From assembly GCA_049323035.1 (NCBI GenBank), contig JBMOLB010000005.1, forward strand, positions 110,402-174,401: a stretch of DNA of 64,000 nt, written 5' to 3'. A model generated the notes under the pieces. That model searched no databases, had not been told where the DNA came from, and saw only the letters and a list, made by a program, of their open reading frames with translations. Source of the DNA: Patescibacteria group bacterium. GTDB taxonomy: Bacteria > Patescibacteriota > Microgenomatia > UBA1406 > GWC2-37-13. The translations under genes and the position numbers were made by a program. Shown piece after piece: positions 1 to 26,767 of this stretch. Position 1 is the first letter of the stretch, and each line of letters opens with the position of its first letter.

Positions 1-1226
1 CCAACGACTCGGGAGCCGGAGGATTGACCGGACCCGGTGGCGTTGAATATTGCTGTATAGTGTATAAACAAGGTCTATACGCCTCCCAGTATGGTTGTGA
101 CGCATCCCAATATGTTGCAAAAGTTGTCGGATTCACCGGTAATAAGGACGGAACAGACGGGTATACCAGTTGTGCGACGACAGGGTATGAAAAATATTCA
201 ACCATACAAAAGGTGGGAAACTGTTCCGGAATGGCCGAAACACAGTCTTTGGCTTCTGCCGGATCGGGATCCATATGCGTTGGCAATCCGGACAAACCAC
301 CTGTCAGCAGCGGGACAGAACTGGAGGCTCCAACCACATGCAAGCCAGCCTTAAATAGCCCCGATTGCACAGAAATGGCGAAGCAATATGGAATCAGTAT
401 GATCTTTCGGACAGCTTCAAAGATGTGTTGTCCTGTTGGTGTAAATCCGCCGGCGGCAGAGGATCAAGCGGGAGAATGCTCGTCTCCTATTAGCTGTCCC
501 GCCAATACAACGGGCGGACCTTACTATTCGAAGATGGTAAAAAAATCCTATGATCCGGTGGCTTATCCGAATTACTACAAAACCAAGGACCAGTGCAAAA
601 ACAACCAGAATTCTTACATGAACGAACGTGAGATCATTGAAGAGGTCTGCAAGCCGAAAACGCAAACTCCCGAAACTCCGCAGAGCGGCGTTGCGTCAGG
701 AACGAGCTGTTTTACGTCGACTTCCAAGATCGGCTCGTATAATTTTACCGATAGGCCGGATGACGTTGTGAAAGGCACCGCCCGCTGTGGAGGAGTGGTC
801 ATATATAACTCTTCCTTAGGGACGATATTGAGGGAATGTCCGACCTCCGGGAACGAATGCAGGTATAGCTGTTATAATGCTCAAAATGTCCAAGTAAACT
901 GCACGGGCGTCAGCGATGTGCATGGCGGGGGAATTAGGAAAGTGACGGTGGTCAATAATACCGGCAACGAAATCGAAATAACGGGAAAGATTACGAAGAA
1001 TAACACAAGTTCCATATCAATCGGCCAGGTCGCAATAGGATCGGCAGCGGGCGCGAACTTTTACACCAAGGACTTCAGCAATGTCGATTCTCTGGACTGC
1101 GCTTTCCTGTCAACGATCCACTTTACGGTCATGTACAGGAAAAAGGGAGACACAGTGTGGAGCACACCATTTTCAACACAAGAAAGATGTGCGGGGACAG
1201 TTAATTTATTGGTTTCCATAAAATGA
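1..1226 (+). CDS. Cys-rich secreted/surface protein; 5' end runs off the window
   Basis: The frame is open from base 3 with no upstream stop, so the listed TTG at 24 is probably internal. Many Cys, Thr/Pro-rich linkers, no enzymatic motif. The stop overlaps the next start (ATGA). Confidence 0.55.
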   Translation, partial: NDSGAGGLTGPGGVEYCCIVYKQGLYASQYGCDASQYVAKVVGFTGNKDGTDGYTSCATTGYEKYSTIQKVGNCSGMAETQSLASAGSGSICVGNPDKPPVSSGTELEAPTTCKPALNSPDCTEMAKQYGISMIFRTASKMCCPVGVNPPAAEDQAGECSSPISCPANTTGGPYYSKMVKKSYDPVAYPNYYKTKDQCKNNQNSYMNEREIIEEVCKPKTQTPETPQSGVASGTSCFTSTSKIGSYNFTDRPDDVVKGTARCGGVVIYNSSLGTILRECPTSGNECRYSCYNAQNVQVNCTGVSDVHGGGIRKVTVVNNTGNEIEITGKITKNNTSSISIGQVAIGSAAGANFYTKDFSNVDSLDCAFLSTIHFTVMYRKKGDTVWSTPFSTQERCAGTVNLLVSIK

Positions 1227-1723
1227 ACAATATCAAGAGTTACGGTAAATTATTGGTGATCATGCTTGCGGCGTATATTATTGCCGATTTTGGCGTCAAT
1301 AACGTATTCCTTGCCAAAACGCCTAAAATCAACCCCTTTGCGATGCAAAACATGAAATATAAGGTCAACAACTTCATCGGCAATACTTCTGCATTTGTTG
1401 CTTCGTTAAATCCCCTGAAGCGGACCAACAACAGTCCTTCGGGGCCGGAAATAAACGACAGCGGAGCTTCGGTCGCCAATATTCCCCAACCTCAAAAGGT
1501 TCAAGATGAAATAACCAACGCCTTGTCGGCCCCGATGACCAAGCTGAGCCAGGGAGTTTACGCAAGCGAAGTCAACGACATAAAGGTTTACGAGGTAAGG
1601 ACAGACGAATTAGGTAACGAATATAAGGTTTACAAGTTCAATATTAACGGTAAAGAAATTCAGATAAAGGTTCCCGTCAACCAGACGCCGCCGACGAAGG
1701 AAGAACTTGAAGGAATATTTTGA
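1223..1723 (+). CDS. N-terminally membrane-anchored hypothetical protein
   Basis: One N-terminal hydrophobic helix (LLVIMLAAYIIADFGV). Translationally coupled to the upstream ORF. No recognisable domain. Confidence 0.55.
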   Translation: MNNIKSYGKLLVIMLAAYIIADFGVNNVFLAKTPKINPFAMQNMKYKVNNFIGNTSAFVASLNPLKRTNNSPSGPEINDSGASVANIPQPQKVQDEITNALSAPMTKLSQGVYASEVNDIKVYEVRTDELGNEYKVYKFNINGKEIQIKVPVNQTPPTKEELEGIF

Positions 1724-1732
1724 CCAAATTGA

Positions 1733-1761
1733 TTGACATTTATATTATTAGTTTCTAATAT
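1733..1761 (+). promoter_or_regulatory. sigma70-like promoter, probable leaderless start for the 1768 ORF
   Basis: TTGACA (1733-1738), exact 17-nt spacer, TAATAT (1756-1761). The ATG at 1768 lies 6 nt after the -10 box and has no SD. Confidence 0.4.
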
Positions 1762-1767
1762 TAATCT

Positions 1768-2064
1768 ATGTATATCGGGCCGTTTTATTTTGACACGAAG
1801 GAGCTTTTCCTCATACTGGCAGGCGTCCTTATAGGATTAGCCTGGGCATTGGGTTGGCCATTGTGGTGGTTTGACAAGCGGGCTCTTTTGACTCTCATTA
1901 TCCTGATGCTCTTTACCAAGGGTTTGTTGCCGTCGATCCACAACGAGGCCTTCTTTATCCTGGCGTTGGTCACGATATTCCTGAGCCTTTACCTCCCGGT
2001 TTTCCAGGTGGTTCTTTTTTACTTTGTCAGCTTTTTTATGTTTAGGCTTTTGAAGGTAATCTAA
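1768..2064 (+). CDS. small integral membrane protein (about 3 TM helices)
   Basis: 98 aa, almost entirely hydrophobic segments. Confidence 0.5.
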   Translation: MYIGPFYFDTKELFLILAGVLIGLAWALGWPLWWFDKRALLTLIILMLFTKGLLPSIHNEAFFILALVTIFLSLYLPVFQVVLFYFVSFFMFRLLKVI

Positions 2065-2068
2065 CACA

Positions 2069-3232
2069 ATGAAAAAAATTTTAGTTTTTGGAATAGTGTC
2101 GCTGATCTTTGTAATGATTATGTCTTCGGTACGTCCAATCGACACTTCCGCTCAAGACGTTGTCACTGGGTCCTGTGGGGGAATCTCCGGATCCGTCTGT
2201 CCTGCCGACCAATTCTGTGAGTATGACAACGGCGCAAGAGTGGCGCCTTATCCGGATGCTTCGGGGATATGTAAACCAAGCGCCTGGGATTGTAAGGCAT
2301 TGGCCAACGGCGCCCCATGCAAGATGTGTCAACCATGTCCGGCCGGAAAAGTATGCACAAAGGAATGCAAAATAATTTCGGCAACTTGCCAGAATCAGGT
2401 CTGTACCGTTATACCTACAGCAACACCCACTCCGATACCGCCCTTAAATATTGCTCCGGTCACTCCCGGAACGGAGGAACTATGCACTTCGACGACACTT
2501 TCGGATACGAATCTTGGGGCGGGAGAAAGCCTGACGGTTACGTCAAAGTCGACCAGTTCGGATATCGTCCAATTCGGTTGGTGGCTTTATAATATGGACA
2601 ATCTGGATACCAACAATGCCCCAAAACCGATAAAATTCGTTGCGGGAACCAACGTTGCCGGCGTTGTCCAGACCAGGCAGATATCGACCAACCAGGCAAC
2701 ACTCACCATTAACTTCTACGACATAAACAGGAACGACGTTAATTGGACTTATTACATGCCGAAACCAAAAAGAATCAAGGTGGACGCGTATTTCAAAAAA
2801 GCCGGATCGACCGCTTGGTCTAAATATAATGCCAACTGTTCAAAATTCTTTAATGCGGCCACAGTTGATCCGACTCCGACGCCCGTGACCTCCTGCACCT
2901 GCAGCACAGCCAACACCTGCGCGACGACCTGTTTTTTCGACAAATTCGGAACAGGCGTTACTTATTCGAATCCGGTAAACTGCAATCTCGGATCCGACCT
3001 TTTCTCAAGCGCCCCGACCGCCGCCAATAAAAATAAGTGGTGCCAGAGTTATTTGAGGACCAGAGGAGACTCGAACGGAGACGGCAAAACCAACATGCTT
3101 GACTATTTCTATTATGTTTCGGCGACCGTTTTCGGTGCCAAATTGCCCCCGACGGCCAATATAGATTTCAACGGTGACGGCATTGTAAGTTCGGCCGATA
3201 AAACAATATTAATCAAATCGCTGAAACCATGA
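2069..3232 (+). CDS. secreted Cys-rich protein with C-terminal dockerin-like repeat pair
   Basis: Signal-peptide-like N-terminus. The C-terminus carries two Ca-binding-loop-like segments, DSNGDGKTNMLDYFYY and DFNGDGIVSSADKTILIKSL, which is the type I dockerin pattern. Confidence 0.7.
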   Translation: MKKILVFGIVSLIFVMIMSSVRPIDTSAQDVVTGSCGGISGSVCPADQFCEYDNGARVAPYPDASGICKPSAWDCKALANGAPCKMCQPCPAGKVCTKECKIISATCQNQVCTVIPTATPTPIPPLNIAPVTPGTEELCTSTTLSDTNLGAGESLTVTSKSTSSDIVQFGWWLYNMDNLDTNNAPKPIKFVAGTNVAGVVQTRQISTNQATLTINFYDINRNDVNWTYYMPKPKRIKVDAYFKKAGSTAWSKYNANCSKFFNAATVDPTPTPVTSCTCSTANTCATTCFFDKFGTGVTYSNPVNCNLGSDLFSSAPTAANKNKWCQSYLRTRGDSNGDGKTNMLDYFYYVSATVFGAKLPPTANIDFNGDGIVSSADKTILIKSLKP

Positions 3233-5040
3233 TGAAAAAAGACGCCCTCAAATTACTGACAGTTTTCATTGTCACCGTGGCGGGTGTTTTTTGGGCGCTG
3301 AACTATTTGTTTTTGAGCGACAAGACGGCTCAGAAATCAAAGGCAGCCAATGACAGCATTGAAGTCTCTTATGATCCGGCGACCCCGACTGCCGCCGCCG
3401 GGCAGGATTTTACGGTAATGGTGAGAATGAAGCCGCCGACAAATGTCTCGCTTAGGGGATATACCCTGAAACTCAAGTTCGACAAGGCAATCCTGAAAGC
3501 AAAATACATAGACTATAAAATAGGAGTCCCCAGTCCGGACTTTGGTGACACTTCGGGTTCTCTGACCGCGATAAATGAGGCGGGAACTATCAACATCCAG
3601 GGGGAAATACAAAACCCCACAGGTCTTCTTATAAACGCAAACACGACCAATGACATTGTCAGAATAGTCTTTACGGCAACCCAGGCATCCGGAAATACGG
3701 TTGCCCTGAGCAACGTTAACTTTTACAAGGTCAAATCGGACGGAACCATCGAAGTTGATGAGATCGCTTCGCCTCCGGAACTCAAGGTTAACGGAGGGGC
3801 GGCGGCTGCCCAGTGCGAAAATTTCACCGATGGTTTTTCGGCTTCTTCGTTGAATTCCAGCCGATGGGGCATTAATACGAACAATTCCGGGACAGTCCGC
3901 ACTGACAACGATGAACTGACCATAACCACTCCTGAAAGCACCAATAACATGGGAAAAACGACATACATATACAGCAAAAACCTCGTCGGGGGTGATTTTG
4001 CAGTCGAAACTGTTTTCAAAGGATTATCGAGCACCCCTGCGAGCGCTTCCGGTTACGTGTCCGGGTTGGGTTTCTTCGCCCACGATTCGGGCTATGACGG
4101 CTTTGCAATAGAAAGACACGGTAATGGCCAGCTCAAAGTTCTTTATGATTGGAACAATAGCGACTGGGTCAGCCCTGTTCTTGTCAATACCTCTTTGGGT
4201 CAGAACAGCCCGGTCAAGGTCAAGATGGAAAGAACCGGCACAGAAGTTAAATTCTATTATGACATATTCGACGGAGGCGGTTACAGGCTGGCGAAGTCCT
4301 TTACGGGCGCATATGCCGGGAAAGCTAACATCGAGGTATTCGTGAATAACTACGGAACCAGTTATCCGAAAGCGGTCGGGAAATTCGACGATTTCAAGTT
4401 GGCCTGTTCAGGCGGCGGGAGCGTGACTCCAACCGTCCCCGCGGTTAACATAACGCCGACCGGGGCAATTGCAGTGACAGGCAACACGGTCTTGAATCTT
4501 AAACTCAAATTCCAGGGAATAACTGCCAAGCCTGCCGATCCAAGGAATTTCATGAACGTAAAATTCACCCTTTCGGGTGAAGGGATAACAACACCGCTTG
4601 TTAAGTCGGGTTCTTTCGTGAGCGATGCCTCGGGAGTGTGGAGCGGTAAGGTCGGATTTGATCTTACTTCCCCTGCGGGCAAGAAATACACGCTTTACGT
4701 CAAAGGGCCTCGCCACGTCCAAAAGAAGATTTGCGTCAATGCCCCAGCGGAAAACACCCCAGGAACATACAGTTGTAGCGCCCAGGCGATCACCCTTGCA
4801 TTGGGCGAAAACACCCTGGATCTCTCCAAGGTTTTGCAGCTTTCGGGCGACATATACGGCACCGATAAAGGCCAGGACGGGATCGTCAATTCCATAGACA
4901 TATCCTATGTCAAGAATAACCTCAAAAAAGCCGACGCGGCGGTTTTGGGAATTTGCGACATCAATTTGGATGGCAAGTGCGATACTCAGGATTACTCATT
5001 GATCATCTCGTCCCTGTCTATAAAGAGCGACGAACTCTAA
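3229..5040 (+). CDS. surface protein: cohesin-like N-domain, ConA/LamG-like lectin domain, C-terminal dockerin-like pair
   Basis: N-terminal TM anchor. Cohesin-like block (AAAGQDFTVMVRMKPP...IVRIVFTATQASGNTVAL). Central block FTDGFSASSLNSSRWG...VKFYYD resembles a ConA-like lectin/glucanase fold. C-terminus has DKGQDGIVNSIDISYVKNNL and DINLDGKCDTQDYSLIISSL. ATGA overlap with the upstream gene. Confidence 0.7.
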   Translation: MMKKDALKLLTVFIVTVAGVFWALNYLFLSDKTAQKSKAANDSIEVSYDPATPTAAAGQDFTVMVRMKPPTNVSLRGYTLKLKFDKAILKAKYIDYKIGVPSPDFGDTSGSLTAINEAGTINIQGEIQNPTGLLINANTTNDIVRIVFTATQASGNTVALSNVNFYKVKSDGTIEVDEIASPPELKVNGGAAAAQCENFTDGFSASSLNSSRWGINTNNSGTVRTDNDELTITTPESTNNMGKTTYIYSKNLVGGDFAVETVFKGLSSTPASASGYVSGLGFFAHDSGYDGFAIERHGNGQLKVLYDWNNSDWVSPVLVNTSLGQNSPVKVKMERTGTEVKFYYDIFDGGGYRLAKSFTGAYAGKANIEVFVNNYGTSYPKAVGKFDDFKLACSGGGSVTPTVPAVNITPTGAIAVTGNTVLNLKLKFQGITAKPADPRNFMNVKFTLSGEGITTPLVKSGSFVSDASGVWSGKVGFDLTSPAGKKYTLYVKGPRHVQKKICVNAPAENTPGTYSCSAQAITLALGENTLDLSKVLQLSGDIYGTDKGQDGIVNSIDISYVKNNLKKADAAVLGICDINLDGKCDTQDYSLIISSLSIKSDEL

Positions 5041-5041
5041 T

Positions 5042-5665
5042 ATGGAAAACAAGAATAAAATATACATTTACCTTTTGGTTATATTTTTTGCGGTCTTTGT
5101 GGGCACGGGTCTGTTTGTCGGCGCGGGCAACAAAAAAAACCAGGCTACAGGAAAAGAAATTAACTCGACAAAAAGCGATTTGGCGTCAAACACCCTAAAG
5201 CAGGAAAATTTGGTCATGCCGACAGTCGCACCCACCCAGGGATCGTTAACATTGACCTCCGATTTAGCCGGTTATTCCTTGTCGGACAACATAGTCCTTA
5301 ACCTGAAGGGACAGTCCGCGGGGAAAAACGTCGTCGGCTACGATGTAGTTCTCTATTATGATCCATCGGCGGCTGACTTTGTCGAAGTAAGATCGTCCTT
5401 GCCCGATTTCAAGATTTACTCGTATAATAGAGGTAACTATCTTTTATTGACAGCGGTAAAGGGGTTGGAGAGCACGGCACCGACGGTTTTGGGGTCGGCA
5501 GACAGCAGCCAGCCGATGGCGACGATTGTTTTTAAACCCAAAAAGTCAGGAAAGTCTAATTTTTCGTTAAGGCAATCAACGGGCAAGGATATAACCGATT
5601 TGGTAACCGACCAAACGGAAGTTCTTAACCCGTCATTGCAGGATTTGACGGTTGAAGTAAAATGA
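5042..5665 (+). CDS. membrane-anchored cohesin-like domain protein
   Basis: N-terminal TM helix, then a cohesin-like beta-sandwich pattern (VVGYDVVLYYDPSAADFVEV...MATIVFKPKKSGKSNFSL). Confidence 0.6.
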   Translation: MENKNKIYIYLLVIFFAVFVGTGLFVGAGNKKNQATGKEINSTKSDLASNTLKQENLVMPTVAPTQGSLTLTSDLAGYSLSDNIVLNLKGQSAGKNVVGYDVVLYYDPSAADFVEVRSSLPDFKIYSYNRGNYLLLTAVKGLESTAPTVLGSADSSQPMATIVFKPKKSGKSNFSLRQSTGKDITDLVTDQTEVLNPSLQDLTVEVK

Positions 5666-6330
5666 AGAATATAAAAAAAACCATTATCGTTCTGATGATT
5701 TTCCTTGGGTTGACTCCCTTGGTTTTTGCCGTCGAGGCGGCTTCCTTGAAATTCACCAACACGACTGCGACTGTTTCGAACGGCGGCACTTTTCAGATCG
5801 GGGTAACCGTTGATCCGGGTTCCGACAGTGTCAACTCGGCGGATGTTTACGTGACATACGACGGAACGCTTTTGAAAGCGACCGGCGTTTCGGCGGGGTC
5901 TCTTTTCCCGACGGTCACGAATGATGTCGCCACATCGGGTACGGTTTATATAGCGGGTATGGTTAATGACCCGGCCAATTCGATTTCTTCGGCAGGAACG
6001 ATCGCCACGATCACTTTCCAAGCCCTCAAGGAAGGATCCGGCACATTGTCTTTTGACTGCAATTCCTCGAAAGTTGTAAAGAACGACCTCAACGCCACCA
6101 ACGTGTTAACCTGTTCATCAAACGGAACCTCGGCTATTACGGTTGGTGCCGGAGGATCGAGTTCGAGCAATCCGACTGCCACCCCAACCACGTCAGCGTC
6201 AACGGGCGGTACGGATAGTGCGGCTCCGACGGAATTGCCGCAAACCGGAATATGGGACAACGTCGCAAGACTTGCAATTCCGGGAGCGATATTGTTAATA
6301 TTAGGTGGAGCATTAAGACTGGTATTATGA
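5662..6330 (+). CDS. cohesin-like domain protein with LPXTG cell-wall sorting signal
   Basis: Signal peptide. Cohesin-like block (GGTFQIGVTVDPG...ADVYVTYDGTLLKA...GTIATITFQALKEGSGTLSF). Thr/Ser/Pro linker, then LPQTG followed by a hydrophobic helix and a basic tail. Confidence 0.75.
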   Translation: MKNIKKTIIVLMIFLGLTPLVFAVEAASLKFTNTTATVSNGGTFQIGVTVDPGSDSVNSADVYVTYDGTLLKATGVSAGSLFPTVTNDVATSGTVYIAGMVNDPANSISSAGTIATITFQALKEGSGTLSFDCNSSKVVKNDLNATNVLTCSSNGTSAITVGAGGSSSSNPTATPTTSASTGGTDSAAPTELPQTGIWDNVARLAIPGAILLILGGALRLVL

Positions 6331-6941
6331 TAAACAATCCCAAGACCGCAAAAATTGCCGCCATCGTCATCGGGATTTTCATCTTCATAGGCTTACTGAT
6401 ATTGACTTTCCAGCTCATTGGCACCCGAGCCGCCGATTTTGAACCGAGGGATGTGGTCGTTTCCAATATCGACAAGAATTCCGTCAAGGTTACCTGGGCA
6501 ACCGGCGTTGATTCCCAGGGGGTTGTCGAGTACGGAACGACACCCACAGCTCTGAATTTCTTTGCCCCCGAGGCCGCAAAAGCAAAGACTCACAGCCTTG
6601 ATTTGACCCTTCTGTCGCCGAATACAACCTATTATTTTGATATACGGGTTGGAGACAAAAAATACGATAACGGAGGCGTTCCCTGGACGTTTACGACCAA
6701 GAATACCGAAGGATCGACCGTTCCCGCGCCAACTGCCGTTGCGCCGACATCGGCTGTTGCTACCCCGACAAAACCAGCCTCCGGCAACACAACCCAGCCG
6801 ACACCGGTCCAAAGACTTGAGATACCCGACGGAAGCACCTGCACCGAAACGGATTGTGCCAAAATAAAGGAGAAACTCGGCAAGGGATGCTCGACGCAAG
6901 ACTACTTCAAATGTGTGCGGGCACTGACGCCAACTCCTTAA
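6327..6941 (+). CDS. membrane-anchored FN3-like domain protein
   Basis: I use the ATG at 6327, which overlaps the upstream TGA (ATGA); the listed 6252 start would overlap the LPXTG tail. TM helix, then an FN3/purple-acid-phosphatase-N-like pattern (NSVKVTWATGVDSQGVVEYGTTP...YYFDI), a Pro/Thr linker and a Cys-rich tail. Confidence 0.6.
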   Translation: MINNPKTAKIAAIVIGIFIFIGLLILTFQLIGTRAADFEPRDVVVSNIDKNSVKVTWATGVDSQGVVEYGTTPTALNFFAPEAAKAKTHSLDLTLLSPNTTYYFDIRVGDKKYDNGGVPWTFTTKNTEGSTVPAPTAVAPTSAVATPTKPASGNTTQPTPVQRLEIPDGSTCTETDCAKIKEKLGKGCSTQDYFKCVRALTPTP

Positions 6942-7591
6942 ATAACTCCCGTAAGGCTCATGGGGATAAGGATGTTTACCATAAACGAAACCACTGGCGA
7001 AAGAACCCTTTCGAGCATTGACGTGCCGGCAATCGGGAATATCATCAGCAAAAGGAAAAACATTCCGTATCTCTGAAGCGAATACCATTCGCGGGCGCTT
7101 TCGTTTGAGAGGAACCCCCCGACAATCTTAAACCCGTCCAGCGGGTGGATAGGTAAAAGATTAAATACCCCCAAAATAATGTTCATCCTGATGACGGGCG
7201 TTAACAACAAAAATCCTATAGTTGTTAAAAAATTAAGATCAAAAAATATTAACAATCTCAATATTATAGAAAGTATTATTGCCATAATAAAATTGGATAT
7301 AGGGCCGGCAATCGATATTACCGCAGCGTCTTTTCTGGGATTTTTCAGGTTGTAGGGATCGAATTCAACCGGTTTTCCCCAACCGAACCCGAAAAGAAGC
7401 AAAAACACCATACCCAACCAGTCCAAATGGGCCATCGGATTTAACTTAAGCCTGCCCTGAAGCCTTGGAGTCGGATCGCCCAAATGGTCGGCCATATATG
7501 CGTGGGAGAACTCATGAATGGTAATGGCAACAAGCAGCGCAAACAGATACAAAAAGAAGATTAAAGGGTTGGAAAACAGGTAGTTGTACAT
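6938..7591 (-). CDS. site-2 protease family (peptidase M50) membrane metalloprotease
   Basis: HEFSHA zinc motif inside a TM helix, several further TM helices, and a downstream LLPIHPLDG motif. Confidence 0.85.
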   Translation of the reverse strand: MYNYLFSNPLIFFLYLFALLVAITIHEFSHAYMADHLGDPTPRLQGRLKLNPMAHLDWLGMVFLLLFGFGWGKPVEFDPYNLKNPRKDAAVISIAGPISNFIMAIILSIILRLLIFFDLNFLTTIGFLLLTPVIRMNIILGVFNLLPIHPLDGFKIVGGFLSNESAREWYSLQRYGMFFLLLMIFPIAGTSMLERVLSPVVSFMVNILIPMSLTGVI

Positions 7592-11021: not shown

Positions 11022-12974
11022 TTATAACTGCTGGCTGGTTTTTTGCCGAAGGAAAATGAATATTCCAATCGCGCCTGCGATCAGGACGACAAATACCACT
11101 GCCGTAAGGAGAAGTGGATCGAGACCGGTCTTCTTTGCAATTGCCGTCAACGCGGCGTTGTTTTTGAGGTTTTGGATTGGATTCTGGTTACTCAATTTTT
11201 GAGCGGTACTTTCCTTTTGGGCGGCTATCGCAGCCTCAGCCTCTTTTTTATTGTCTTCAGCTATAAGACTCTTGCCGTCCTTGGTGGCGGTTATGAGGTT
11301 TATTCTGTTGGTTTTCAGGTATTCGGAGTTGTTTTTTGCAAACTGGTATGTCCTTTGGGTTGACTTCTTTCCGGTTACCGGATTGGTGAACTCCAGCTGA
11401 TACTCCATTGTCGGGATGTTCGAGGGGGAGACAACGAAGTAGCCTTTTTCGTCTGCCTTGGTTTCATAATACACGCCCCCGGTTTTCCTCAGTCTAAGCT
11501 TTACGACGGCATTCGGTATAACCTGTTTTTGAGTGTCGTAAGCATAGCCTTCTATATATGAGGGCATCGGGTCGACGGTTATCTTACTCAAGATTGTAGC
11601 GGCATTGACATCAAAACCGAAAAATCTCTTGATCAGCCAGGCAAAGTCGCCGGTCAAATTCGCTTTTGTGAAAACGACCTCAAGCGGCGCCGCCTGGGAA
11701 ATAGAGGATACGGGTACGCTTACCGTATAATGGCCGGAATTGTTTGCCTTCTGACTGCCGAGTTGCTGGCCGTCCTGCATGACGCTGACCAAGGTCAACG
11801 GGTGGGAGACTTTCCCCTTAAAGGTATATACAAGGTTGTCCTTGTTGATGTCGTAAAAAATACTCACGACCTGATCGGCCACATATGGCGCACCAAGAGG
11901 CGTCAATGGCACGTTGCGGCATTCCGGATCGGGTGATTTTTTGATGACTTCCATGGGTGTATCGATGATTTCATTTATGGCCTCGCCCGGCTTATAAAGG
12001 GAACAAAAACTGCCGTTGGTATCCTGGAATACATAAACCCTTTCGGCATTACTGTTAAGGGGAGGACTGCTTTCAAACTTGTAGTTTGCGGGTGGAGTAA
12101 GAACCAGGGTGTATGTTCCGGCCTGTACGGCGTAGTTGAAAACACCGTCCGGTCCGGTTTTCTGATCGTTGACGAATCCGTCATACGATACCTTTTTCCC
12201 ATCCTTATCAAGGATCGTCACGGTAACACCGGACAACGGCTCAAGGCTTTTAGCATCGAAAACGATCCCGTACGGGTCGTGATGAGTCCAGCTTATGCTG
12301 GCGCAGTCCGTTCCTGACGTATCCGGGAATTCAAATTCAAAAGTCCCTTGCTGTTGTCCGCCCTCGTCGAAAACCCCAACATCGACGTTGTTTTTCTTGA
12401 CAATCTGTATGCCGTAAAAACTGTATCCGCCGGAATCCGCCGTAGTTCCATAGATGACGGCATCGTAATTGACGGTTCCAATGGAATCGGACGTCGCTTT
12501 CGATCCCTCAGTGCTGGTCCCCGGAACATAAAATTTGACATTTATAAGCTGCGTAAGGTCGGTATTGGCGGCAGTACCCTGGTTAATGACGACCGTTTGG
12601 CCGGTCGAGTTCTGGATTTCCAGGTCCGAAAAGAAAAGATAGTCGTCGTTTGTCTTGTTGCCTGTCGAGCAGGTTCTTCCGGCGTCAGTTCCCTTGCAGG
12701 CAATCGCGTAGACGTCCGTGACCGGGTGGAAGGTGCCGGTCAGGTATTTTTTTAGCGATTGGGGGCTAGGGGGATCGTGCCACGTCAGATTGAAGGAGTC
12801 GGGTATTTTTTGGCCGGTTGCCGGATCGACCCGGTTCTTCAAACAGCTGGTAATCCTGTCCTCGGTCGCATTTGATTGGGCATTGACGGAAAAAACCAGG
12901 AAGGAGAAGAAGTTGAAAAGGAGAGCAAAAATAGTCACAATCGAGGCTATTTTCATTCTTTTGTAAGAGCTCAT
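11022..12974 (-). CDS. large surface protein with carboxypeptidase-regulatory-like beta-sandwich repeats and a C-terminal TM anchor
   Basis: Signal peptide (FSVNAQ). Two CarboxypepD_reg-like blocks (VTVTILDKDGK...TGPDGVFNY...GTYTLVL; GYAYD...KADEKGYFVV). Charged coiled segment, then a C-terminal TM helix. Confidence 0.65.
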   Translation of the reverse strand: MSSYKRMKIASIVTIFALLFNFFSFLVFSVNAQSNATEDRITSCLKNRVDPATGQKIPDSFNLTWHDPPSPQSLKKYLTGTFHPVTDVYAIACKGTDAGRTCSTGNKTNDDYLFFSDLEIQNSTGQTVVINQGTAANTDLTQLINVKFYVPGTSTEGSKATSDSIGTVNYDAVIYGTTADSGGYSFYGIQIVKKNNVDVGVFDEGGQQQGTFEFEFPDTSGTDCASISWTHHDPYGIVFDAKSLEPLSGVTVTILDKDGKKVSYDGFVNDQKTGPDGVFNYAVQAGTYTLVLTPPANYKFESSPPLNSNAERVYVFQDTNGSFCSLYKPGEAINEIIDTPMEVIKKSPDPECRNVPLTPLGAPYVADQVVSIFYDINKDNLVYTFKGKVSHPLTLVSVMQDGQQLGSQKANNSGHYTVSVPVSSISQAAPLEVVFTKANLTGDFAWLIKRFFGFDVNAATILSKITVDPMPSYIEGYAYDTQKQVIPNAVVKLRLRKTGGVYYETKADEKGYFVVSPSNIPTMEYQLEFTNPVTGKKSTQRTYQFAKNNSEYLKTNRINLITATKDGKSLIAEDNKKEAEAAIAAQKESTAQKLSNQNPIQNLKNNAALTAIAKKTGLDPLLLTAVVFVVLIAGAIGIFIFLRQKTSQQL

Positions 12975-13004: not shown

Positions 13005-15173
13005 TCAAGTCGTTTTTCGCCCGTATTTTTCCTTGGAAAGGCGGATGATTTTATCCCGGTTTTCGTTTTTCATGGCCGGCGGCGGCAGGGTCTTGGCAGG
13101 GAACGGTGAGGATGTCATACCGTCGATGCACAACTTGAGGACGGCCTCGTATTTACCAAGCGATACCAAGTCGTTTTCGGTATAGATCTCTCCGTATTCT
13201 TTGGATAATACATATGCGTCCCGGGCACCGACGACAAACGACATCAGGGTTCCGACGTTTCCGAAAATCGCCCTTTGTATCTCCTCATCAAGCTGTTCGA
13301 TATACTGGTTGGCCAAGGTAAGGGACAACCGGTATTTCCTGGCTTCAGACAGTATCTTGATGAAGGAATGGGTGGCGAAGTTCTGGAACTCGTCTACATA
13401 CAGGAAAAAATCTTTCCTCTCATGTTCCTTTATGAAGCTCCGGTTCATGGCCGCCAATTGGAGTTGGGTGATAAGCATCGCGCCAAGCAAGGCGGTATTG
13501 TCCTCGCCGAGCTTTCCCTGGGATAGGTTAAGAATTAATATCTTGCCGTCGTTCATGATGTTTTCCAGATCGATTGAAGATTTGGTGCGCCCAATGATGT
13601 TCCTGATCATCTTCGAGGTGACGAACTGACCGACCTTGTTTTGGATGGGGGAAATGGCCTCTGCCTTCAAGCGGTCGGGCATTTTGGCGTATTCCTTTTC
13701 CCAGAAGTCCTTGAGAACCGGATCCTGGAGATCCCGTACAACTTTTTTCCGGTATTCGGCATTTGCCAAAAGAGCCAGGATGTCGACCAAAGTAGCCCCC
13801 GGGGCTTCAAGAAGGGTTAAAATCACGTTGCGCAAAATATATTCCAGTCTCGGCCCCCAGCTGTCCTTATAGAGTTTATAGAATATTGAGACAATTCCGG
13901 AAGCAACCAAATCCTTTTGCTGCCGGTTTTTTATCTCAAGGACGTTCAGGGAAAATGGCCGTTCGGTATCGAAAGGTTCGAGGTAAACAACGTCATTGAG
14001 GCGGCGCTTCGGGATATAGTCGAGGATTGCTTCGGACAAGTCGCCGTGCGGGTCAACGATGCCGACACCGCGGTCTTTCCTGATGTCGTCGATGGCCATA
14101 TTGGCAATCAAGGTCGATTTACCGACGCCGGTTTTACCGATTATATAAACATGCTTGCGTCGGTCTTCCGTCTTGATCCCAAAAATGGTCTCCTTGTTCT
14201 TGAATTCGGTCTTGGCAAAGAAATTGACATCCTTTTTCTGGTCCTCGTTTAGAGTATCGGCAACAGGCAGATTTTCGGGCGGTTCGCCCAACAAAGTTTT
14301 GCCCCAGGCAATGTTTTTGATGCCAGCCAAAAGGTAACCGGGCGGATGCCAGATGGTCGCCAGCTCCTGGGCGTTGAGAATCTGGAATTTCCTTTCGAAA
14401 TAGGAGATCTTCCGTTCCTTGATCCTTTTGAGAAAGCTTTCACCAAAAAATATTTTTTTCTTGAAAACGTACTGGTTGCCTTCGCCAAGGGAAAACGATC
14501 CGAATGTCCCGGCGAGTTGTGTCAGGTATGGCCTGGTGTCTACTGCCTGTTCGTTTGAACCGACCAATAGCCTGATCGCGGCCTTGCCTCCCTGGAACGA
14601 GGCCTTCTTCATAATGAGCTGCCTTTGGGGATTCTGGCCGTATTTGGCGGCAGCCTCATCGTAACTCATCTTGTGGGCGGCGCTCACGGCCTGGTCAGAC
14701 CAGGGGAAGTACGCCGGGGTAATGGCAACCTGGATGGCCATCTTTATGTTGGCCGGTTGTTTTGACATGTAGCCTATGAGGGACGACAGGGGATCGACGT
14801 CCTTGAAGTCGAAATAGGTCTTGGTCGGCAGGTATGTGTAGGAATTGAGTGCGACCTCTCCGTACGACAGGCTTTTGGATTTCATGATCATTTCCATCGG
14901 GTCGGAGGTTTTTTTGGCGGTCGAGGTCGGGAATGAGGAGGAAATAAGGCTGTTCACAAAGGTCTGGGTTTCGGCCGGAACGGTGACATAAAAATACAGA
15001 GTTTGACTCAAGAGATAAATCTCAAAGGCGTAAGTTTTCGGATGGATGAAAAAACGCCTCAATAACGGGATATAGGGATAGGGGAGGAGTGAGGCAAAAA
15101 TCTGTGTCGCCGACTCGATCGGCGTTTCGTCATCTTTAGGATTGCGGATTTGTAAGTGGGAAAGGTTTGACAT
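13005..15173 (-). CDS. VirD4/TraD/TraG-like (type IV secretion coupling protein family) P-loop ATPase
   Basis: Walker A IIGKTGVGKST. Walker B FFLYVDEFQNF. A large unannotated N-terminal domain of about 330 aa. C-terminal TLANQY...GNVGT pattern as in the TraD/FtsK-like DNA-binding ATPases. Confidence 0.7.
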   Translation of the reverse strand: MSNLSHLQIRNPKDDETPIESATQIFASLLPYPYIPLLRRFFIHPKTYAFEIYLLSQTLYFYVTVPAETQTFVNSLISSSFPTSTAKKTSDPMEMIMKSKSLSYGEVALNSYTYLPTKTYFDFKDVDPLSSLIGYMSKQPANIKMAIQVAITPAYFPWSDQAVSAAHKMSYDEAAAKYGQNPQRQLIMKKASFQGGKAAIRLLVGSNEQAVDTRPYLTQLAGTFGSFSLGEGNQYVFKKKIFFGESFLKRIKERKISYFERKFQILNAQELATIWHPPGYLLAGIKNIAWGKTLLGEPPENLPVADTLNEDQKKDVNFFAKTEFKNKETIFGIKTEDRRKHVYIIGKTGVGKSTLIANMAIDDIRKDRGVGIVDPHGDLSEAILDYIPKRRLNDVVYLEPFDTERPFSLNVLEIKNRQQKDLVASGIVSIFYKLYKDSWGPRLEYILRNVILTLLEAPGATLVDILALLANAEYRKKVVRDLQDPVLKDFWEKEYAKMPDRLKAEAISPIQNKVGQFVTSKMIRNIIGRTKSSIDLENIMNDGKILILNLSQGKLGEDNTALLGAMLITQLQLAAMNRSFIKEHERKDFFLYVDEFQNFATHSFIKILSEARKYRLSLTLANQYIEQLDEEIQRAIFGNVGTLMSFVVGARDAYVLSKEYGEIYTENDLVSLGKYEAVLKLCIDGMTSSPFPAKTLPPPAMKNENRDKIIRLSKEKYGRKTT

Positions 15174-17478: not shown

Positions 17479-20400
17479 ATGGGCAAAATAGTTGACTATC
17501 TCAAAAAAAGACCTGGTTTAATCGTGATTTTAATGATTCTAGTAGTCATAACTGCCGTTAACATAAAACCAGACTTCTATCTTGCCGGATGGGATAATTA
17601 TTCTTCCTACTTCAACCTTAAAACCAATATTTTCAGGACATTTTTTGCCACCTGGAGGGAGTATCGAGGCCTAGGGGTTCCATCGGACTCAGAATCTACC
17701 GATATTTTTAGGCAGATATTTTTCCTGATCCTGTCTCCATTCGTAAAAACCCAACTGCTGGATCAGATTTATGCTGTTTTTGCATTGAATTTTGGAGTGT
17801 TGCTGGTATATTTTCTGCCGGGTAAGCTGCTCGGATATATTAAAAAAGATAGTGAGCATAAAGACATTGTTGGTTTCGCGGCAGGTTTTTTTTATCTCTT
17901 CAATCTCAATACTTTGGCGACATTCTATTTCCCGATGATCATGTTCATCAATCGCTATTATACGGTTCCTCTCTTGGTCACCTTGCTGTTGAGGTATTTT
18001 GAAAATAAGAAACTATCGTCTTGGGAATATTTTCTGTTTGGAGCTTCAATTGTGGCTACAGCAGGCAGTTACATGACAGCAACAGTATTCATAACCGTTT
18101 TAATGTTCTTATCAGTCTTTATATTTTTCCAAAGCCCCAATATTAAAAAATCCCTGATTTCGATGACGATGTTTCTGTTACTCAACGGTTTTTGGCTGTT
18201 TCCATTTATTAATTACACGATCCAAAGAAGCGGGGTAGTAAATTTGGCACCAACTTTCATTGAAGCGAACGAAATACAGCTAAACAAACCGAAGTCCTTT
18301 TATACCCTGGAAAAACTAGCGATTTTATATCCAAATTTTTTTGACACCGCAATCACAAGTATCGACAGACAAAACGAGACTGGATACCATCCGCTTGTGC
18401 CTATAATGTCAAAATTCCCATACCGTCATATTCTCTGGCTATTTCCCCTGTTATATATTGCCGGATCAATCTATATAACAGTCAGGATAAGGAGAAACTG
18501 GAGAATTATGTGGATTCCAGCTACTGTTTTCCTTTTCATGTTCTTGTCAATGAAAGAATTTTCCCCTTTGGGTTTTGTATACATTTTTCTTGAAAAGGCG
18601 ATCCCTTTTTTCGGGAACATATTCAGATTTGCTGACACAAAATTTCATTTTTATATAGCATTTTCCGGTAGCCTTGCAATTGGATTGTTTACAGGATTAC
18701 TGGCGGAAAAAATCAAAAGCAAGAGTTTGCGGATTTTTCCCTTAATCTTGATCATATTGTCGGCGTTCGTTTTCAAAGGCTATTTCACCGGGAATCTTTT
18801 TGGATTTTTTGACCGGAACAGAATTCCCGATGCTTATTTTAAATTGGCTGAAGTCGTCAACTCCGACCATGGGGATGGTCGCGTTCTTCATTTACCTTTT
18901 GATAAGAATATATATTGGCGGTCATACAACTGGGGATATTTAGGGTCATCGTTTTTACATTTTATGATCGACAAGCCATTAATTGAAAAAACATTTGAGC
19001 CAGGAAGTCAGGAAAATGCTTTGTTAAACGACGAAATCTTCCGGATTATTGCCAATACCCAGTCGGCGACGGCCAATCACAGCCAGGAGAGCAAGACTTT
19101 TGAGTTCTATAACCTCTTAAAAAAGACGGGCATAAAATATATAATTTTCGATGAAACTGTTTCATCCGAACAACCATCAAAGGGAATAACGCTTTGGGGT
19201 AGGTTCAATGTTTCCGATTCCAATAAGATGATAGGCAATCTCGAAAACGCCGGCTATTTGAATCTAAGAGCTTCATTTCCGGTTAACCTTACCGAATTTA
19301 TGACCGACGAAAAAGTCTTTCCTGAAGACCCGTTACAGATTAGCGAAGTAGAAAAAAGCCCCTTATATTCAATAAAGTTGTACGAAGTCAAGGAACCAGA
19401 CGCAAAGATAAGAACGGCAGGAAAGACCGTTGTTTCTGATTCCAACATGTCCAGCCTTAGTATACAAGAGGGCTTTGATTACATGCAGGACGACTCTGGC
19501 GTAAACGTAATGACATCGCCATTCAAAAGACGGAACACTTTGCCGAAAATCGAAAAGGGATTTGGTCGGTTAGTTCTTGACGGTTACAAAATTATTCCCG
19601 GACTTGGATATGATTTGACATTACAAAACAAAGCCGGACAACCATCCCAAACCCAAATAGGAGTATTTGTCAGAAAAGACGAAGATAACCTGACGATTTC
19701 ATTTTATCAAATGGATTTTCCTGACGTCGTCGTGGATGGCTCGATCATCAGCAATCGTAAAAAAATAAAGGAGATATCCATACCGTTAGGCACGGTATCA
19801 ACAGCCTTGGAGATTAACGATAGTACTGGCAGATATCTTGCTAACTGGCAAATATTGCCCTATGACAGAATAAATGGCTTAAGAATCAAGATGGGTAAAA
19901 CGACAATGCCTTTGCCCAGCTCCATTGGTGAAACGGAAGGCTATGTCGGATCCACGGTGGTTGATGAAGGAGTAATGCCGATAAAGATATTGGCTCAGGA
20001 CACAGAAACGAAAGATGTTGTTAATTCGTTTGGCCTGACCGAAAAACCTAATTGTTTTGATGACGGCCTGAAGGATTATGCGTCAAGCCTTTCGGCACAG
20101 GAAACCGGTTTTTCATTGGACAGCATGAACGGATCAACATGTCTTATTAGTTCGCTTGGCGAATATGTCGACGAGGATAATAACTATCTCGAAGTTGGTT
20201 TTGAGTATAACAGCAGTTCGGAAGACCTTGATGGCGATTACGATCTGAAGTATGCCAACCCGAGCAAGCCGATTTTGAGAAAGACGATTGTTACCGAGGA
20301 AAAACCCAATTATTTTTACGCCTGCATCAGAGATGTCAAGTTGGATGACTGCTTCAATGTTCATTCAACCGCAAATCTTGGAGATAGCGGATCGGTTATA

Positions 20401-21507
20401 ATTCCTGCGGAAAAGGAAATAAACGCCCTAAATCCCATAATCTTCCTGGCTTTGAAAAACATCGGTTACCAAAAGCAGAATCTAATTATCCATGGTTTAG
20501 AGATAAAGGAGTACAAAACGGTCGCCTCTGATGATTTGACAATTGTCCCCGCAAAGACAGAAAACATGAGTATTATTTCCAACACATCGCAGCCTTTGGA
20601 ATTAATTTTTGATTTGCCATTGAGCGGTTATTCTTTTTACCAGAATTCAATGGACGGTTTTAACGTATCCAACGGTCCATGTTCTAGAATCGATTCATAC
20701 CGGACATTCAGAAAAGATAAAAAAGAAAACCTGATAAGTTATTTCGAAAACTGCGATAATAGCCTGTTTCAAACCCTGGATTTCAACAGCAATAACTTTT
20801 ACCTTTGGTCGGTTGATTATAACTCCGCCTCCGGAAAGTATCCCAGAATGGTTCTGGGTGATGGGCTTTTTAACTATGTTGACCAGTATTTATCACTCTG
20901 GCATGGTTACCCAAATGTCAAAGGATTTAAGGAATTTCAATATCCAGAGTTTTTCCAATCAACGAACTCGGTGAAGGAAAAGCTTGACAATGTCGAGTTG
21001 GTGAATACTTCGATTACCATACCATCCAACCCGGAATTCTACGATTACAAAAAAAAGAATTTCACTATCAGTCACAATTCAGAAAACGAAGGGATGGCCT
21101 TAATCAACCGTTTCAATGTCATAGCGATTCCCAATACTTGGGAGGGCTTGACAATAAATTCGCCAGGAAACATAACGGTCAACGAGTTTGCGTCGGTAAC
21201 AGAATACAAACAGTTTCTTCCATCGCTATGGAAATTGATTCTAAACAATGATGATTTTGGAAATCAGGTGGTATATTTCAACGAGGCATACGACAGCCAA
21301 TGGGGGATCTATTCCAGCATTTTTGACCTAATGACAGGCAAGGAATCATCGATGTCACATTATAAATGCAACGGTTATGCCAACTGTTTTGAAGTGTCGC
21401 AACCAGGGACGTATTATGTTTTCTATCAGCCGGAAAGACTATATTTCTTTGGCTGGCTGGTCACCTTGGCGGCAATCTTTTTAGGGAAGATAATCGTTTC
21501 TATCTGA
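17479..21507 (+). CDS. giant polytopic membrane protein, GT-C-type glycosyltransferase, AftD-like architecture
   Basis: 1342 aa. About 450 aa of N-terminal multi-TM region, a very large soluble (extracytoplasmic) region, and one C-terminal TM helix (WLVTLAAIFLGKIIVSI). This matches arabinofuranosyltransferase AftD/DUF3367-type proteins. Low-GC DNA. Confidence 0.55.
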   Translation: MGKIVDYLKKRPGLIVILMILVVITAVNIKPDFYLAGWDNYSSYFNLKTNIFRTFFATWREYRGLGVPSDSESTDIFRQIFFLILSPFVKTQLLDQIYAVFALNFGVLLVYFLPGKLLGYIKKDSEHKDIVGFAAGFFYLFNLNTLATFYFPMIMFINRYYTVPLLVTLLLRYFENKKLSSWEYFLFGASIVATAGSYMTATVFITVLMFLSVFIFFQSPNIKKSLISMTMFLLLNGFWLFPFINYTIQRSGVVNLAPTFIEANEIQLNKPKSFYTLEKLAILYPNFFDTAITSIDRQNETGYHPLVPIMSKFPYRHILWLFPLLYIAGSIYITVRIRRNWRIMWIPATVFLFMFLSMKEFSPLGFVYIFLEKAIPFFGNIFRFADTKFHFYIAFSGSLAIGLFTGLLAEKIKSKSLRIFPLILIILSAFVFKGYFTGNLFGFFDRNRIPDAYFKLAEVVNSDHGDGRVLHLPFDKNIYWRSYNWGYLGSSFLHFMIDKPLIEKTFEPGSQENALLNDEIFRIIANTQSATANHSQESKTFEFYNLLKKTGIKYIIFDETVSSEQPSKGITLWGRFNVSDSNKMIGNLENAGYLNLRASFPVNLTEFMTDEKVFPEDPLQISEVEKSPLYSIKLYEVKEPDAKIRTAGKTVVSDSNMSSLSIQEGFDYMQDDSGVNVMTSPFKRRNTLPKIEKGFGRLVLDGYKIIPGLGYDLTLQNKAGQPSQTQIGVFVRKDEDNLTISFYQMDFPDVVVDGSIISNRKKIKEISIPLGTVSTALEINDSTGRYLANWQILPYDRINGLRIKMGKTTMPLPSSIGETEGYVGSTVVDEGVMPIKILAQDTETKDVVNSFGLTEKPNCFDDGLKDYASSLSAQETGFSLDSMNGSTCLISSLGEYVDEDNNYLEVGFEYNSSSEDLDGDYDLKYANPSKPILRKTIVTEEKPNYFYACIRDVKLDDCFNVHSTANLGDSGSVIIPAEKEINALNPIIFLALKNIGYQKQNLIIHGLEIKEYKTVASDDLTIVPAKTENMSIISNTSQPLELIFDLPLSGYSFYQNSMDGFNVSNGPCSRIDSYRTFRKDKKENLISYFENCDNSLFQTLDFNSNNFYLWSVDYNSASGKYPRMVLGDGLFNYVDQYLSLWHGYPNVKGFKEFQYPEFFQSTNSVKEKLDNVELVNTSITIPSNPEFYDYKKKNFTISHNSENEGMALINRFNVIAIPNTWEGLTINSPGNITVNEFASVTEYKQFLPSLWKLILNNDDFGNQVVYFNEAYDSQWGIYSSIFDLMTGKESSMSHYKCNGYANCFEVSQPGTYYVFYQPERLYFFGWLVTLAAIFLGKIIVSI

Positions 21508-26637: not shown

Positions 26638-26767
26638 AGTGAGAATTATACTATAAGACTTTTGATTTGTCAACTATAGGTTAAATCGCATCTGAATGCG
26701 TAATTTGAATCACAAAAAAATTATATTTTAGTTCTTTAATCTCACTGCGTTCGATTATAATACAGCT

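Follow-up and report, generated by a model that had tools for sequence, protein, structure and literature searches.

What does a bacterium from the candidate phyla radiation (CPR) do with a tightly packed set of cohesin and dockerin genes? The question is raised by a stretch of 64,000 nucleotides (nt), hereafter the window, which covers positions 110,402 to 174,401 of contig JBMOLB010000005.1 (GenBank assembly GCA_049323035.1). Six plus-strand genes, named here G0c, G1, G2, G3, G4 and G5, lie nearly spacer-free between positions 1768 and 6941 of this window. The original prediction, made from the sequence alone, had seen in five of them a possible self-assembling cell-surface scaffold. The locus probably encodes, in a Roizmanbacteria-like CPR bacterium, a cohesin-dockerin platform for display that is anchored in the envelope and is no cellulosome; both the cohesin-dockerin binding and the sortase anchoring in it are predicted.

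How CPR bacteria, also known as Patescibacteria, attach to cells or feed from them is largely unknown, even though they make up a large share of the uncultivated bacteria, and most of their surface proteins are unannotated. Judged from its closest named relatives, which are Candidatus Roizmanbacteria and Microgenomates, mainly from groundwater, the source of the window is a Roizmanbacteria-like Patescibacterium, in agreement with the CPR origin first assumed. The products of G0c to G5 are identical to the NCBI proteins MFZ6034638-MFZ6034643, and the NCBI pipeline already names their domains. No paper describing the operon or the system was found in the literature on cohesins or dockerins and CPR, Patescibacteria or Roizmanbacteria.

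The six genes, the promoter-like site ahead of them and the parts of their products are the following (aa, amino acids; TM, transmembrane segment; AF2, AlphaFold2; pLDDT, predicted local distance difference test):

1733-1761, plus strand: promoter-like TTGACA-17 nt-TAATAT, from a consensus scan (10/12 matches)
1768-2064, plus strand: G0c, the first gene, for a 98-aa hydrophobic membrane protein, probably polytopic, with no Pfam or NCBIfam match
2069-3232, plus strand: G1, secreted cargo protein with a signal peptide
G1, about aa 33-113: Cys-rich N-terminal part
2483-2857, plus strand (G1, aa 139-263): Ig-like beta-sandwich, AF2 pLDDT >90
2894-3043, plus strand (G1, aa 276-325): Cys box
3065-3223, plus strand (G1, aa 333-385): dockerin, Pfam Dockerin_1 27.0 bits
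3229-5040, plus strand: G2, adaptor protein
3361-3789, plus strand (G2, aa 45-187): cohesin, Pfam Cohesin 26.2 bits
3814-4407, plus strand (G2, aa 196-393): ConA-like lectin-fold domain, from the predicted structure and Foldseek
4480-4824, plus strand (G2, aa 418-532): 'X' beta-sandwich, from the AF2 model
4846-5016, plus strand (G2, aa 540-596): dockerin, Dockerin_1 27.3 bits
5042-5665, plus strand: G3, membrane-tethered cohesin-like protein, with a TM at about aa 8-30 and a linker of ~35 aa
5219-5662, plus strand (G3, about aa 60-207): cohesin-like domain
5662-6330, plus strand: G4, wall-anchor candidate with a signal peptide and a Ser/Thr/Pro linker
5743-6141, plus strand (G4, aa 28-160): single cohesin, Pfam Cohesin 40.1 bits
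6235-6249, plus strand (G4): LPQTG, followed by 26 largely hydrophobic residues, the tail ending in R-L-V-L
6327-6941, plus strand: G5, with an N-terminal hydrophobic segment and a Pro/Thr linker, Pur_ac_phosph_N 39.4 bits and fn3 21 bits
6432-6710, plus strand (G5, aa 36-128): FN3-type domain, highly conserved
6840-6914, plus strand (G5): C-terminal four-Cys motif C172, C177, C188, C196

The first step is whether these genes belong together. G0c is followed after 4 nt by G1, G1 and G2 share an ATGA overlap (with an additional ATG at 3232), G3 begins after a gap of 1 nt from the G2 stop, and the G3/G4 and G4/G5 boundaries are again ATGA overlaps. The start of G5 is placed at 6327, where an M-x-NNPK start is kept in 16/16 orthologues; the listed open reading frame (ORF) is longer and runs from 6252. 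The sole real intergenic gap, 1724-1767, lies upstream and contains the promoter-like site, which ends 6 nt ahead of the G0c ATG and recurs as promoter-like hexamers in the same register in the related loci L002, L003, L007 and L012. The position of this putative promoter suggests a leaderless or near-leaderless G0c mRNA. Because of the tight gene packing and the single, conserved promoter-like site upstream, G0c-G1-G2-G3-G4-G5 (about 1733-6941) can be read as one transcription unit. The coupling of the five genes at 2069-6941 by ATGA or 1-nt junctions had been recognized from the start, but the unit would begin one gene earlier than proposed, at G0c. At the other end, the stop codon of G5 overlaps that of a convergent M50-family peptidase gene (6938-7591, minus strand) by 4 nt, at 6938-6941, and therefore there is no space for an intergenic terminator. 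This convergent overlap is kept in several related loci, while in others up to ~140 nt separate the two genes, and L017 is interrupted.

The second step is whether the modules are what they seem to be. The Pfam gathering cut-offs are 22.9 bits for Dockerin_1 (PF00404), 24.1 for Cohesin (PF00963) and 30 for Pur_ac_phosph_N, and Pfam supports both the cohesin and the dockerin family in this locus, as the original prediction had expected. NCBIfam gave no match for G1, G2, G3 or G5. The dockerin of G1 holds two 12-residue Ca-binding loops, DSNGDGKTNMLD and DFNGDGIVSSAD, both of which are canonical, that is, of the EF-hand-like pattern D-x-[DN]-x-[DN]-G-x5-D in two duplicated segments, each then followed by a helix. 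Canonical loops are present in 30/33 homologues of this type of dockerin. G1 had been described as a dockerin-only, secreted and Cys-rich protein; the dockerin and the Cys-rich part stand, but the protein is more than that, as it also contains the Ig-like beta-sandwich at aa 139-263. The AF2 model of G1 has an overall pLDDT of 78.3, and Foldseek returned for the beta-sandwich only generic Ig/FN3/CBM-like matches (E about 4e-5; CBM, carbohydrate-binding module), none of which gives a specific function for this cargo fold.

G2 starts with a hydrophobic segment followed by an invariant S-K-A site, and its AF2 model (pLDDT 73.7) consists of an N-terminal helix, three beta-sandwich domains (45-187, 199-393 and 420-532) and a helical C-terminus. 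The G2 profile matches dockerins of the PDB (3ul4_B, E=2.5e-5). Residues 45-187, where Pfam finds the cohesin, are modelled as all-beta with a pLDDT of 80-90; the Foldseek list of the G2 model consists mostly of matches to its ConA-like domain, and a scaffoldin chain (4fl4_L) appears only at rank 49. The middle domain resembles ERGIC-53, legume lectins and GH16 enzymes (Foldseek E 3e-8 to 1e-6, probability 1.00, TM-score to target 0.5-0.66), and by its model it has the jelly-roll fold of ConA-like lectins and glucanases, with sugar binding predicted at most. This domain has no Pfam match in the window protein, and the ExDxxE motif of GH16 was not seen in it by eye; one G2 orthologue matches PF07081 (DUF1349), which we take to be a ConA-like family. 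Cohesin, ConA/LamG domain and dockerin had all been proposed for G2 and hold by Pfam and Foldseek, but a fourth module, X (about aa 418-532), had been missed. In the G2 dockerin, only the second Ca loop is canonical; in this clade the first is lengthened by an insertion of 5 aa. A BLASTP comparison of G1 with G2 found only their dockerins alike, without significance (E=0.24), and the two dockerin tails are therefore treated as different classes.

The two anchor proteins differ in how clearly they are recognized. G4 is a Pfam Cohesin protein whose profile matches cellulosomal cohesins (3l8q, E=2e-6), and the L, P and G of its LPx[TS]G signal are invariant in 16 orthologues, in keeping with its first description as a cohesin-like protein with LPQTG. 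A phmmer search against 1.84 billion representatives gave 266 relatives at E<1e-10; among the best 150 of these, 114 have [LIV]Px[TSA]G within the last 45 residues, so the combination of a single cohesin with a sorting signal would be a large family. A role of G4 as a pilus protein was considered and rejected, since it has a cohesin fold, is a single LPxTG protein, shows no pilin motif by eye and has no adjacent sortase. G3 had been called a membrane-anchored cohesin-like protein, which Pfam alone does not bear out. It is accepted as cohesin-like because its profile (15 orthologues) aligns with that of G4 (16 orthologues) in hhalign with a probability of 87% (E=4e-6), because the best PDB matches of the profile are the NagJ cohesins of Clostridium perfringens (2ozn/2o4e/2jh2, E about 1e-3), and because NCBI names the protein (MFZ6034641.1) 'cohesin domain-containing protein'. 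G5 indeed has an FN3-type domain, and its four Cys are invariant in a 16-way alignment. Its supposed membrane anchoring is questioned by a conserved T-R-A/A-D site after the hydrophobic segment, at which the alignment suggests cleavage (the slash marks the cut), so that G5 may be a secreted protein and not a membrane-anchored one.

Together with two dockerin proteins, the locus thus encodes three single-cohesin proteins, each with its own mode of attachment: an N-terminal membrane anchor in G3, a signal peptide combined with an LPxTG-type signal in G4, and, in G2, a cohesin placed at the N-terminus of the adaptor. The dockerins are those of G1, the secreted cargo, and of G2 itself. Custom hidden Markov models run over the whole 64-kb window detected no dockerin besides those of G1 and G2 and no cohesin besides those of G2, G3 and G4. 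In related loci, collected by a scan of genome collections and by contig look-ups, the order G0c-G1-G2-G3-G4-G5 recurs in about 16 distinct species-level loci. Because the modules are confined to the operon within the window and the order recurs in about 16 species, the domain architecture is not regarded as a product of chance. In each of these loci the operon is found beside M50 (minus strand), L28, Pdf (minus strand), GT2 and YchF (minus strand) genes, and usually also beside a gene for a VirD4/TrwB-like ATPase. An origin in a mobile element or prophage was rejected, given the fixed site among the L28, Pdf and YchF genes in all relatives and the even GC content.

Conservation is distributed unevenly over the operon. 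G0c is its most conserved gene, 82-97% identical to the window protein across related loci and more conserved than the neighboring ribosomal protein L28, whereas identities to the window proteins are 46-83% for G5, 44-84% for G4, 29-70% for G3 and 36-66% for G2. The G0c family counts 471 clusters at 90% identity; the best 120 of them are nearly all 98 aa long (one has 99) and 77-93% identical, and none of these 120 has an informative name, the named ones being hypothetical proteins. G0c always stands immediately ahead of the dockerin and cohesin genes and G5 always directly after G4, which includes L020, a locus without G1-G3 in which G0c directly precedes G4 and G5. Anchor genes (G0c, G4 and G5) stay while the dockerin-bearing cargo changes between relatives.

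This change of cargo is seen in both dockerin classes. The 'Cys box + dockerin' tail of G1, about 110 aa long, is joined, among 65 G1 homologues, to S8 subtilase, M4, NosD/beta-helix, LamG_3, TSP1 and, in one cargo protein (P0207), CBM4_9. G1 orthologues with SLH and dockerin domains occur in L019 (71 bits) and L006 (39 bits), the SLH domains taking the place of the window-type N-terminal part. In G2, the ConA domain is optional: short variants consist only of cohesin, X and dockerin, with lengths of 367-468 aa in related loci and of 388-409 aa in P0016, P0018 and P0025, which were scanned with Pfam. In L029/L030 (8313-16297), the slots after G0c are taken by a 1457-aa beta-helix protein, built of cohesin, Beta_helix and X-dockerin, and by an M4 peptidase, both with the G2-type X-dockerin tail. 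Each of these X-dockerin cargo genes is followed by its own gene for a G3-type cohesin, and dockerin/cohesin cassettes therefore appear to have been duplicated as pairs. L024 has a G3-type cohesin adjoining an M4-X-dockerin gene at a different chromosomal place, and L026 (3099-12394), a more distant relative, has three X-dockerin genes, three cohesin genes and one FN3 gene, interleaved with L28, with a DsbB gene and a dockerin-less M4 peptidase close by. Taken together, the comparative data fit well with a modular plug-and-socket scaffold, in which conserved anchors would receive swappable dockerin cargo.

Some relatives carry further variants. A Hint domain (intein/hedgehog-type) replaces the window-type N-terminal part in the G1 orthologues of L003 (8570-9997) and L004 (1485-3047), which come from one Microgenomates metagenome-assembled genome (MAG); it precedes beta-sandwich, Cys box and dockerin, P0165 resembles these orthologues, and such a protein may be an autoprocessing cargo. 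Outside Microgenomates, L022 (6887-14281) of a Saccharibacteria MAG has genes for a dockerin protein, a TM-cohesin, a cohesin-dockerin protein and a cohesin with a C-terminal anchor, as well as Cys-rich, PKD-like and small FN3 genes and an adjoining sortase gene (TLMTC), and looks like a simpler relative of the system. Separately, the G4 relative P0219, a JGI metagenome protein of 2276 aa, contains nine cohesins, Big_7, fn3 and a C-terminal dockerin and is, by this predicted domain content, a true multi-cohesin scaffoldin.

The third step is which dockerin would pair with which cohesin. Behind a gene with a G1-type tail there is always one with a G2-type cohesin, and in L024, L026 and L029 each gene with a G2-type tail has a G3-type cohesin gene at its side. 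Co-variation was measured by partial Mantel tests over 13 loci, with the housekeeping distance of M50, Pdf and GT2 regressed out. The G2 dockerin follows the G3 cohesin (r=0.66, p<1e-4), less so the G4 cohesin (r=0.30, p=0.047), and not the G2 cohesin (r=-0.04, not significant). The G1 dockerin follows the cohesins of G4 (r=0.60, p=1e-4) and G2 (r=0.56, p=0.0015) and, to a lesser degree, that of G3 (r=0.23, p=0.046). Adjacency and co-variation together suggest the G3 cohesin as the partner of the G2 dockerin, and the cohesin of G4 and/or G2 as that of the G1 dockerin. The hierarchy put forward in the original prediction, from wall anchor to cohesin to dockerin adaptor to lectin, does not agree with these pairings.

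With these elements, the platform can be proposed to work as follows. All the proteins would be exported by Sec, by means of their hydrophobic N-termini. G4 would be attached covalently to the peptidoglycan by a sortase encoded elsewhere, and G3 would stay in the membrane. G2 would probably be cut by signal peptidase at its S-K-A site and, once released from the membrane, would dock via X-module and dockerin onto the G3 cohesin, so that it is held only by its X-dockerin. Proteins of the G1 type, with Cys box and dockerin, would dock in a Ca-dependent manner onto the cohesins of G4 and/or G2. The resulting layered assembly would display at the surface the ConA-like lectin domain of G2 and the Ig-like/Cys-rich cargo of G1, with G0c and G5 as conserved companions of G4. 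In relatives, the sockets would hold M4 and S8 peptidases or beta-helix, SLH, TSP1, CBM4_9 and LamG modules, and given this variety the platform would be a general display device for adhesive and degradative cargo. It would likely serve to bind a partner cell or particles through their glycans or proteins, and to scavenge from these; host attachment by the scaffold is speculation.

Several observations weigh against this proposal. In the G2 dockerin, the first Ca loop departs from the usual pattern and is canonical in only 4/21 homologues, and both dockerins are modelled with low confidence (pLDDT 40-70). G3 scores 20.0 bits with Pfam Cohesin (E=8e-4), below the cut-off. The tail of G4 has a single Arg near its end and no basic cluster, and G4 reaches no NCBIfam LPXTG model, the best being EF0750_LPXTG with 19.8 bits against a cut-off of 47. 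The sortase that the original prediction had asked for was not encountered: no TLxTC sortase is encoded in the window among ORFs of at least 80 aa, nor beside the operon in Roizmanbacteria loci, and the same scan of the window and related loci found one only in the distant Saccharibacteria locus L022. Elsewhere, the sortase family has been described as 'near ubiquitous in Microgenomates' (PMC6744442). The cargo of the window itself contains no enzyme. L020 keeps G4 and G5 with no dockerin in the locus, and therefore G4 may have a role independent of G1-G3. Finally, the X module of G2 correlates with the G4 cohesin too (r=0.66), which leaves the pairings ambiguous, and a shared evolutionary rate and the movement of whole cassettes confound mirror-tree correlations of this kind.

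Among the alternatives, the one that survives best is a self-directed envelope architecture, in which the contacts would tie together the own membrane of the cell (through G3), its peptidoglycan (through G4) and a wall-polymer or S-layer-like layer, as structural housekeeping. This is considered unlikely, albeit with points in its favor. G0c, G4 and G5 are conserved as much as or more than the neighboring housekeeping genes, with mean pairwise distances of 0.14, 0.34 and 0.19, respectively, against 0.26-0.37 for GT2, M50 and Pdf. The site of the operon next to L28, Pdf and YchF is unchanged across all genomes seen, and L020 keeps only G0c, G4 and G5. The SLH-dockerin orthologues of G1 in L019 and L006 can be added to these, as SLH domains usually bind the wall polymers of the cell itself. 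However, the cargo slots evolve fast and swap peptidase, beta-helix, lectin, CBM and TSP1 modules, which is typical of outward-facing proteins and not of a lattice, and the cohesins of G2 and G3 are the most divergent parts, with a mean distance of about 0.6.

A genuine cellulosome, or an amylosome-like complex, that would break down plant or storage polysaccharides by means of glycoside hydrolases (GH) encoded elsewhere in the genome is highly improbable. Cohesin, dockerin and adaptor architecture are present, CBM4_9 is found on the G1-type cargo P0207, GH39 and GH57 genes lie near related loci, and Microgenomates have been reported to hold more GH than other CPR (PMC7143001). Against this, the neighboring GH39 and GH57 proteins have no dockerin, and the 65 G1-type-tail and 27 G2-type-tail proteins include no GH, their enzymes being M4 and S8 peptidases and beta-helix proteins. 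Neither the operon nor the 64-kb window encodes a GH, a CBM3 or a multi-cohesin scaffoldin; G2, G3 and G4 have one cohesin each, and the window shows no tandem-cohesin scaffoldin, no CBM and no dockerin-bearing GH. That the operon, with no GH or CBM, is not a cellulosome had already been concluded in the original prediction.

The remaining alternative, that the modules are mere fold relatives (EF-hand pairs and beta-sandwiches) of independent, co-transcribed surface proteins that do not bind each other, can draw on the modest scores of 20-40 bits, on the degenerate first loop of the G2 dockerin and on the non-cellulosomal cohesin and dockerin modules of the 2009 survey by Peer et al., which reportedly often lack a known partner, but it is very improbable because cohesin and dockerin genes co-occur, adjoin and duplicate as pairs in L024, L026 and L029, because the distances of the G2 dockerin track those of the G3 and not of the G2 cohesin once phylogeny is removed, and because the Ca-loop residues of the G1 type are kept in 30/33 homologues.

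An envelope-anchored display platform is thus preferred, and it offers definite parts to work with: three cohesin sockets whose attachments are defined, two dockerin classes and species-variable cargo. It also predicts specific cohesin-dockerin pairs, which, where orthogonal, would be useful as protein-assembly tools as well. A bolder version is rather unlikely. In it, Roizmanbacteria and, in a simpler form, other CPR such as the Saccharibacteria of L022 would own a CPR 'dockerome' independent of cellulosomes, with conserved anchors (G0c, the membrane cohesin, the sortase-signal cohesin and the FN3 protein) and cognate cassettes of X-dockerin cargo and G3-type cohesin. These cassettes would display proteases, lectins and beta-helix enzymes that bind and digest the host surface, and G0c would serve as an assembly or anchoring factor not known before. 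If true, the 'dockerome' would be one of the main molecular interfaces through which a large uncultivated lineage lives as episymbionts.

Two further genes lie directly upstream of the operon:

24-1226, plus strand: G0a, a Cys-rich protein truncated by the window start, with its C-terminal 400 aa present
1223-1723, plus strand: G0b, a 166-aa protein with an N-terminal TM

They overlap by ATGA at 1223-1226, as expected from the original remark that the upstream genes are coupled to each other, and the promoter-like gap 1724-1767 separates them from G0c. No Pfam or NCBIfam family was found for either. In L002, L003, L005, L027 and L029 their position is filled by orthologues of 420-802 aa and 127-163 aa, with low sequence conservation (27-75% over parts). 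G0a and G0b are considered upstream syntenic neighbors, and their membership in the cohesin-dockerin system is uncertain.

Other genes of the window deserve mention in their own right. The 722-aa ATPase encoded at 13005-15173 (minus strand) has TrwB_AAD_bind, DUF87/HerA and TraG-D_C domains and resembles VirD4-type coupling proteins; across the Roizmanbacteria loci its identity is 72-92% and its gene keeps synteny with the operon region, and no further type IV secretion system genes were recognized near it. Between this gene and YchF, positions 11022-12974 (minus strand) encode another large envelope protein (650 aa), which combines a signal peptide and a C-terminal TM with CarboxypepD_reg and SpaA prealbumin-like domains. 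A 1342-aa ORF at 17479-21507 (plus strand) has no Pfam match at E<=0.01, and relatives have unannotated ORFs of 980-1307 aa at the corresponding position. The DUF11 surface protein of 25969-26673 (minus strand) ends in VPSAG, a hydrophobic stretch and KKKS; by its sequence, this end gives the window another sortase-type signal, a variant one, whose basic tail is absent from G4.

How does this locus compare with known systems? Cohesin- and dockerin-like modules are reportedly scattered across the three domains of life, often in proteases or surface proteins and with no cellulosomes, according to the survey of Peer et al. 2009; here, by contrast, the operon is conserved, its anchors are defined, its cohesin and dockerin genes come as matched pairs and one slot takes exchangeable cargo, and the lineage, CPR, was unavailable at that time. 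Within CPR, the epibiont Southlakia epibionticum (Saccharibacteria) has an essential dockerin-domain envelope protein, SEML1_0315, for which targeting of host glycans has been speculated (Wang et al. 2023, PMC10633639), and its sortase SEML1_0327 is essential in the same transposon-sequencing (Tn-seq) data (PMC10633639). SEML1_0315 is not an orthologue of this operon: it is a solitary 927-aa gene between hydrolase and tRNA genes, and the annotation tables of that genome hold no cohesin. A link to it was rejected, as the gene is solitary and has no cohesin annotated nearby.

NagJ and NagH of C. perfringens share with this locus the use of cohesin and dockerin for assembling secreted proteins that are not cellulases, and the NagJ cohesins 2ozn, 2o4e and 2jh2 are the best solved relatives of the G3 profile, although the similarity is weak (E about 1e-3). 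In contrast, the C. perfringens modules are found on large secreted GH toxins and not on envelope anchors, and they include neither an LPXTG cohesin nor an operon of dedicated anchors.

The closest known system is that of Ruminococcus flavefaciens, where the ScaE cohesin is anchored by a sortase and has X-dockerin partners. ScaE consists of one cohesin, a linker and an LPxTG signal, as does G4, and sortase-linked anchoring scaffoldins are known from Ruminococcus (PMC11557425). CttA and ScaB of R. flavefaciens have an X-module followed by a dockerin, as in the tail of G2, and the sca genes are clustered, as are the genes of this locus. In CttA, a non-enzymatic substrate-binding protein is presumably docked to the wall anchor, a logic to which this locus can be likened. 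On the other hand, this locus lacks dockerin-bearing GH, a multi-cohesin primary scaffoldin and a CBM3, and its closest solved cohesins by sequence are those of Acetivibrio cellulolyticus ScaB and of Clostridium cellulolyticum types, not ScaE. It adds G3, whose cohesin is tethered to the membrane, as well as an FN3 protein and the 98-aa G0c of the membrane; its cargo is a lectin fold, peptidases or beta-helix proteins, and it belongs to a CPR bacterium rather than a Firmicute. The locus would in this way extend the sortase-anchored cohesin logic of the ruminococcal cellulosomes to a non-cellulolytic, ultra-small bacterium.

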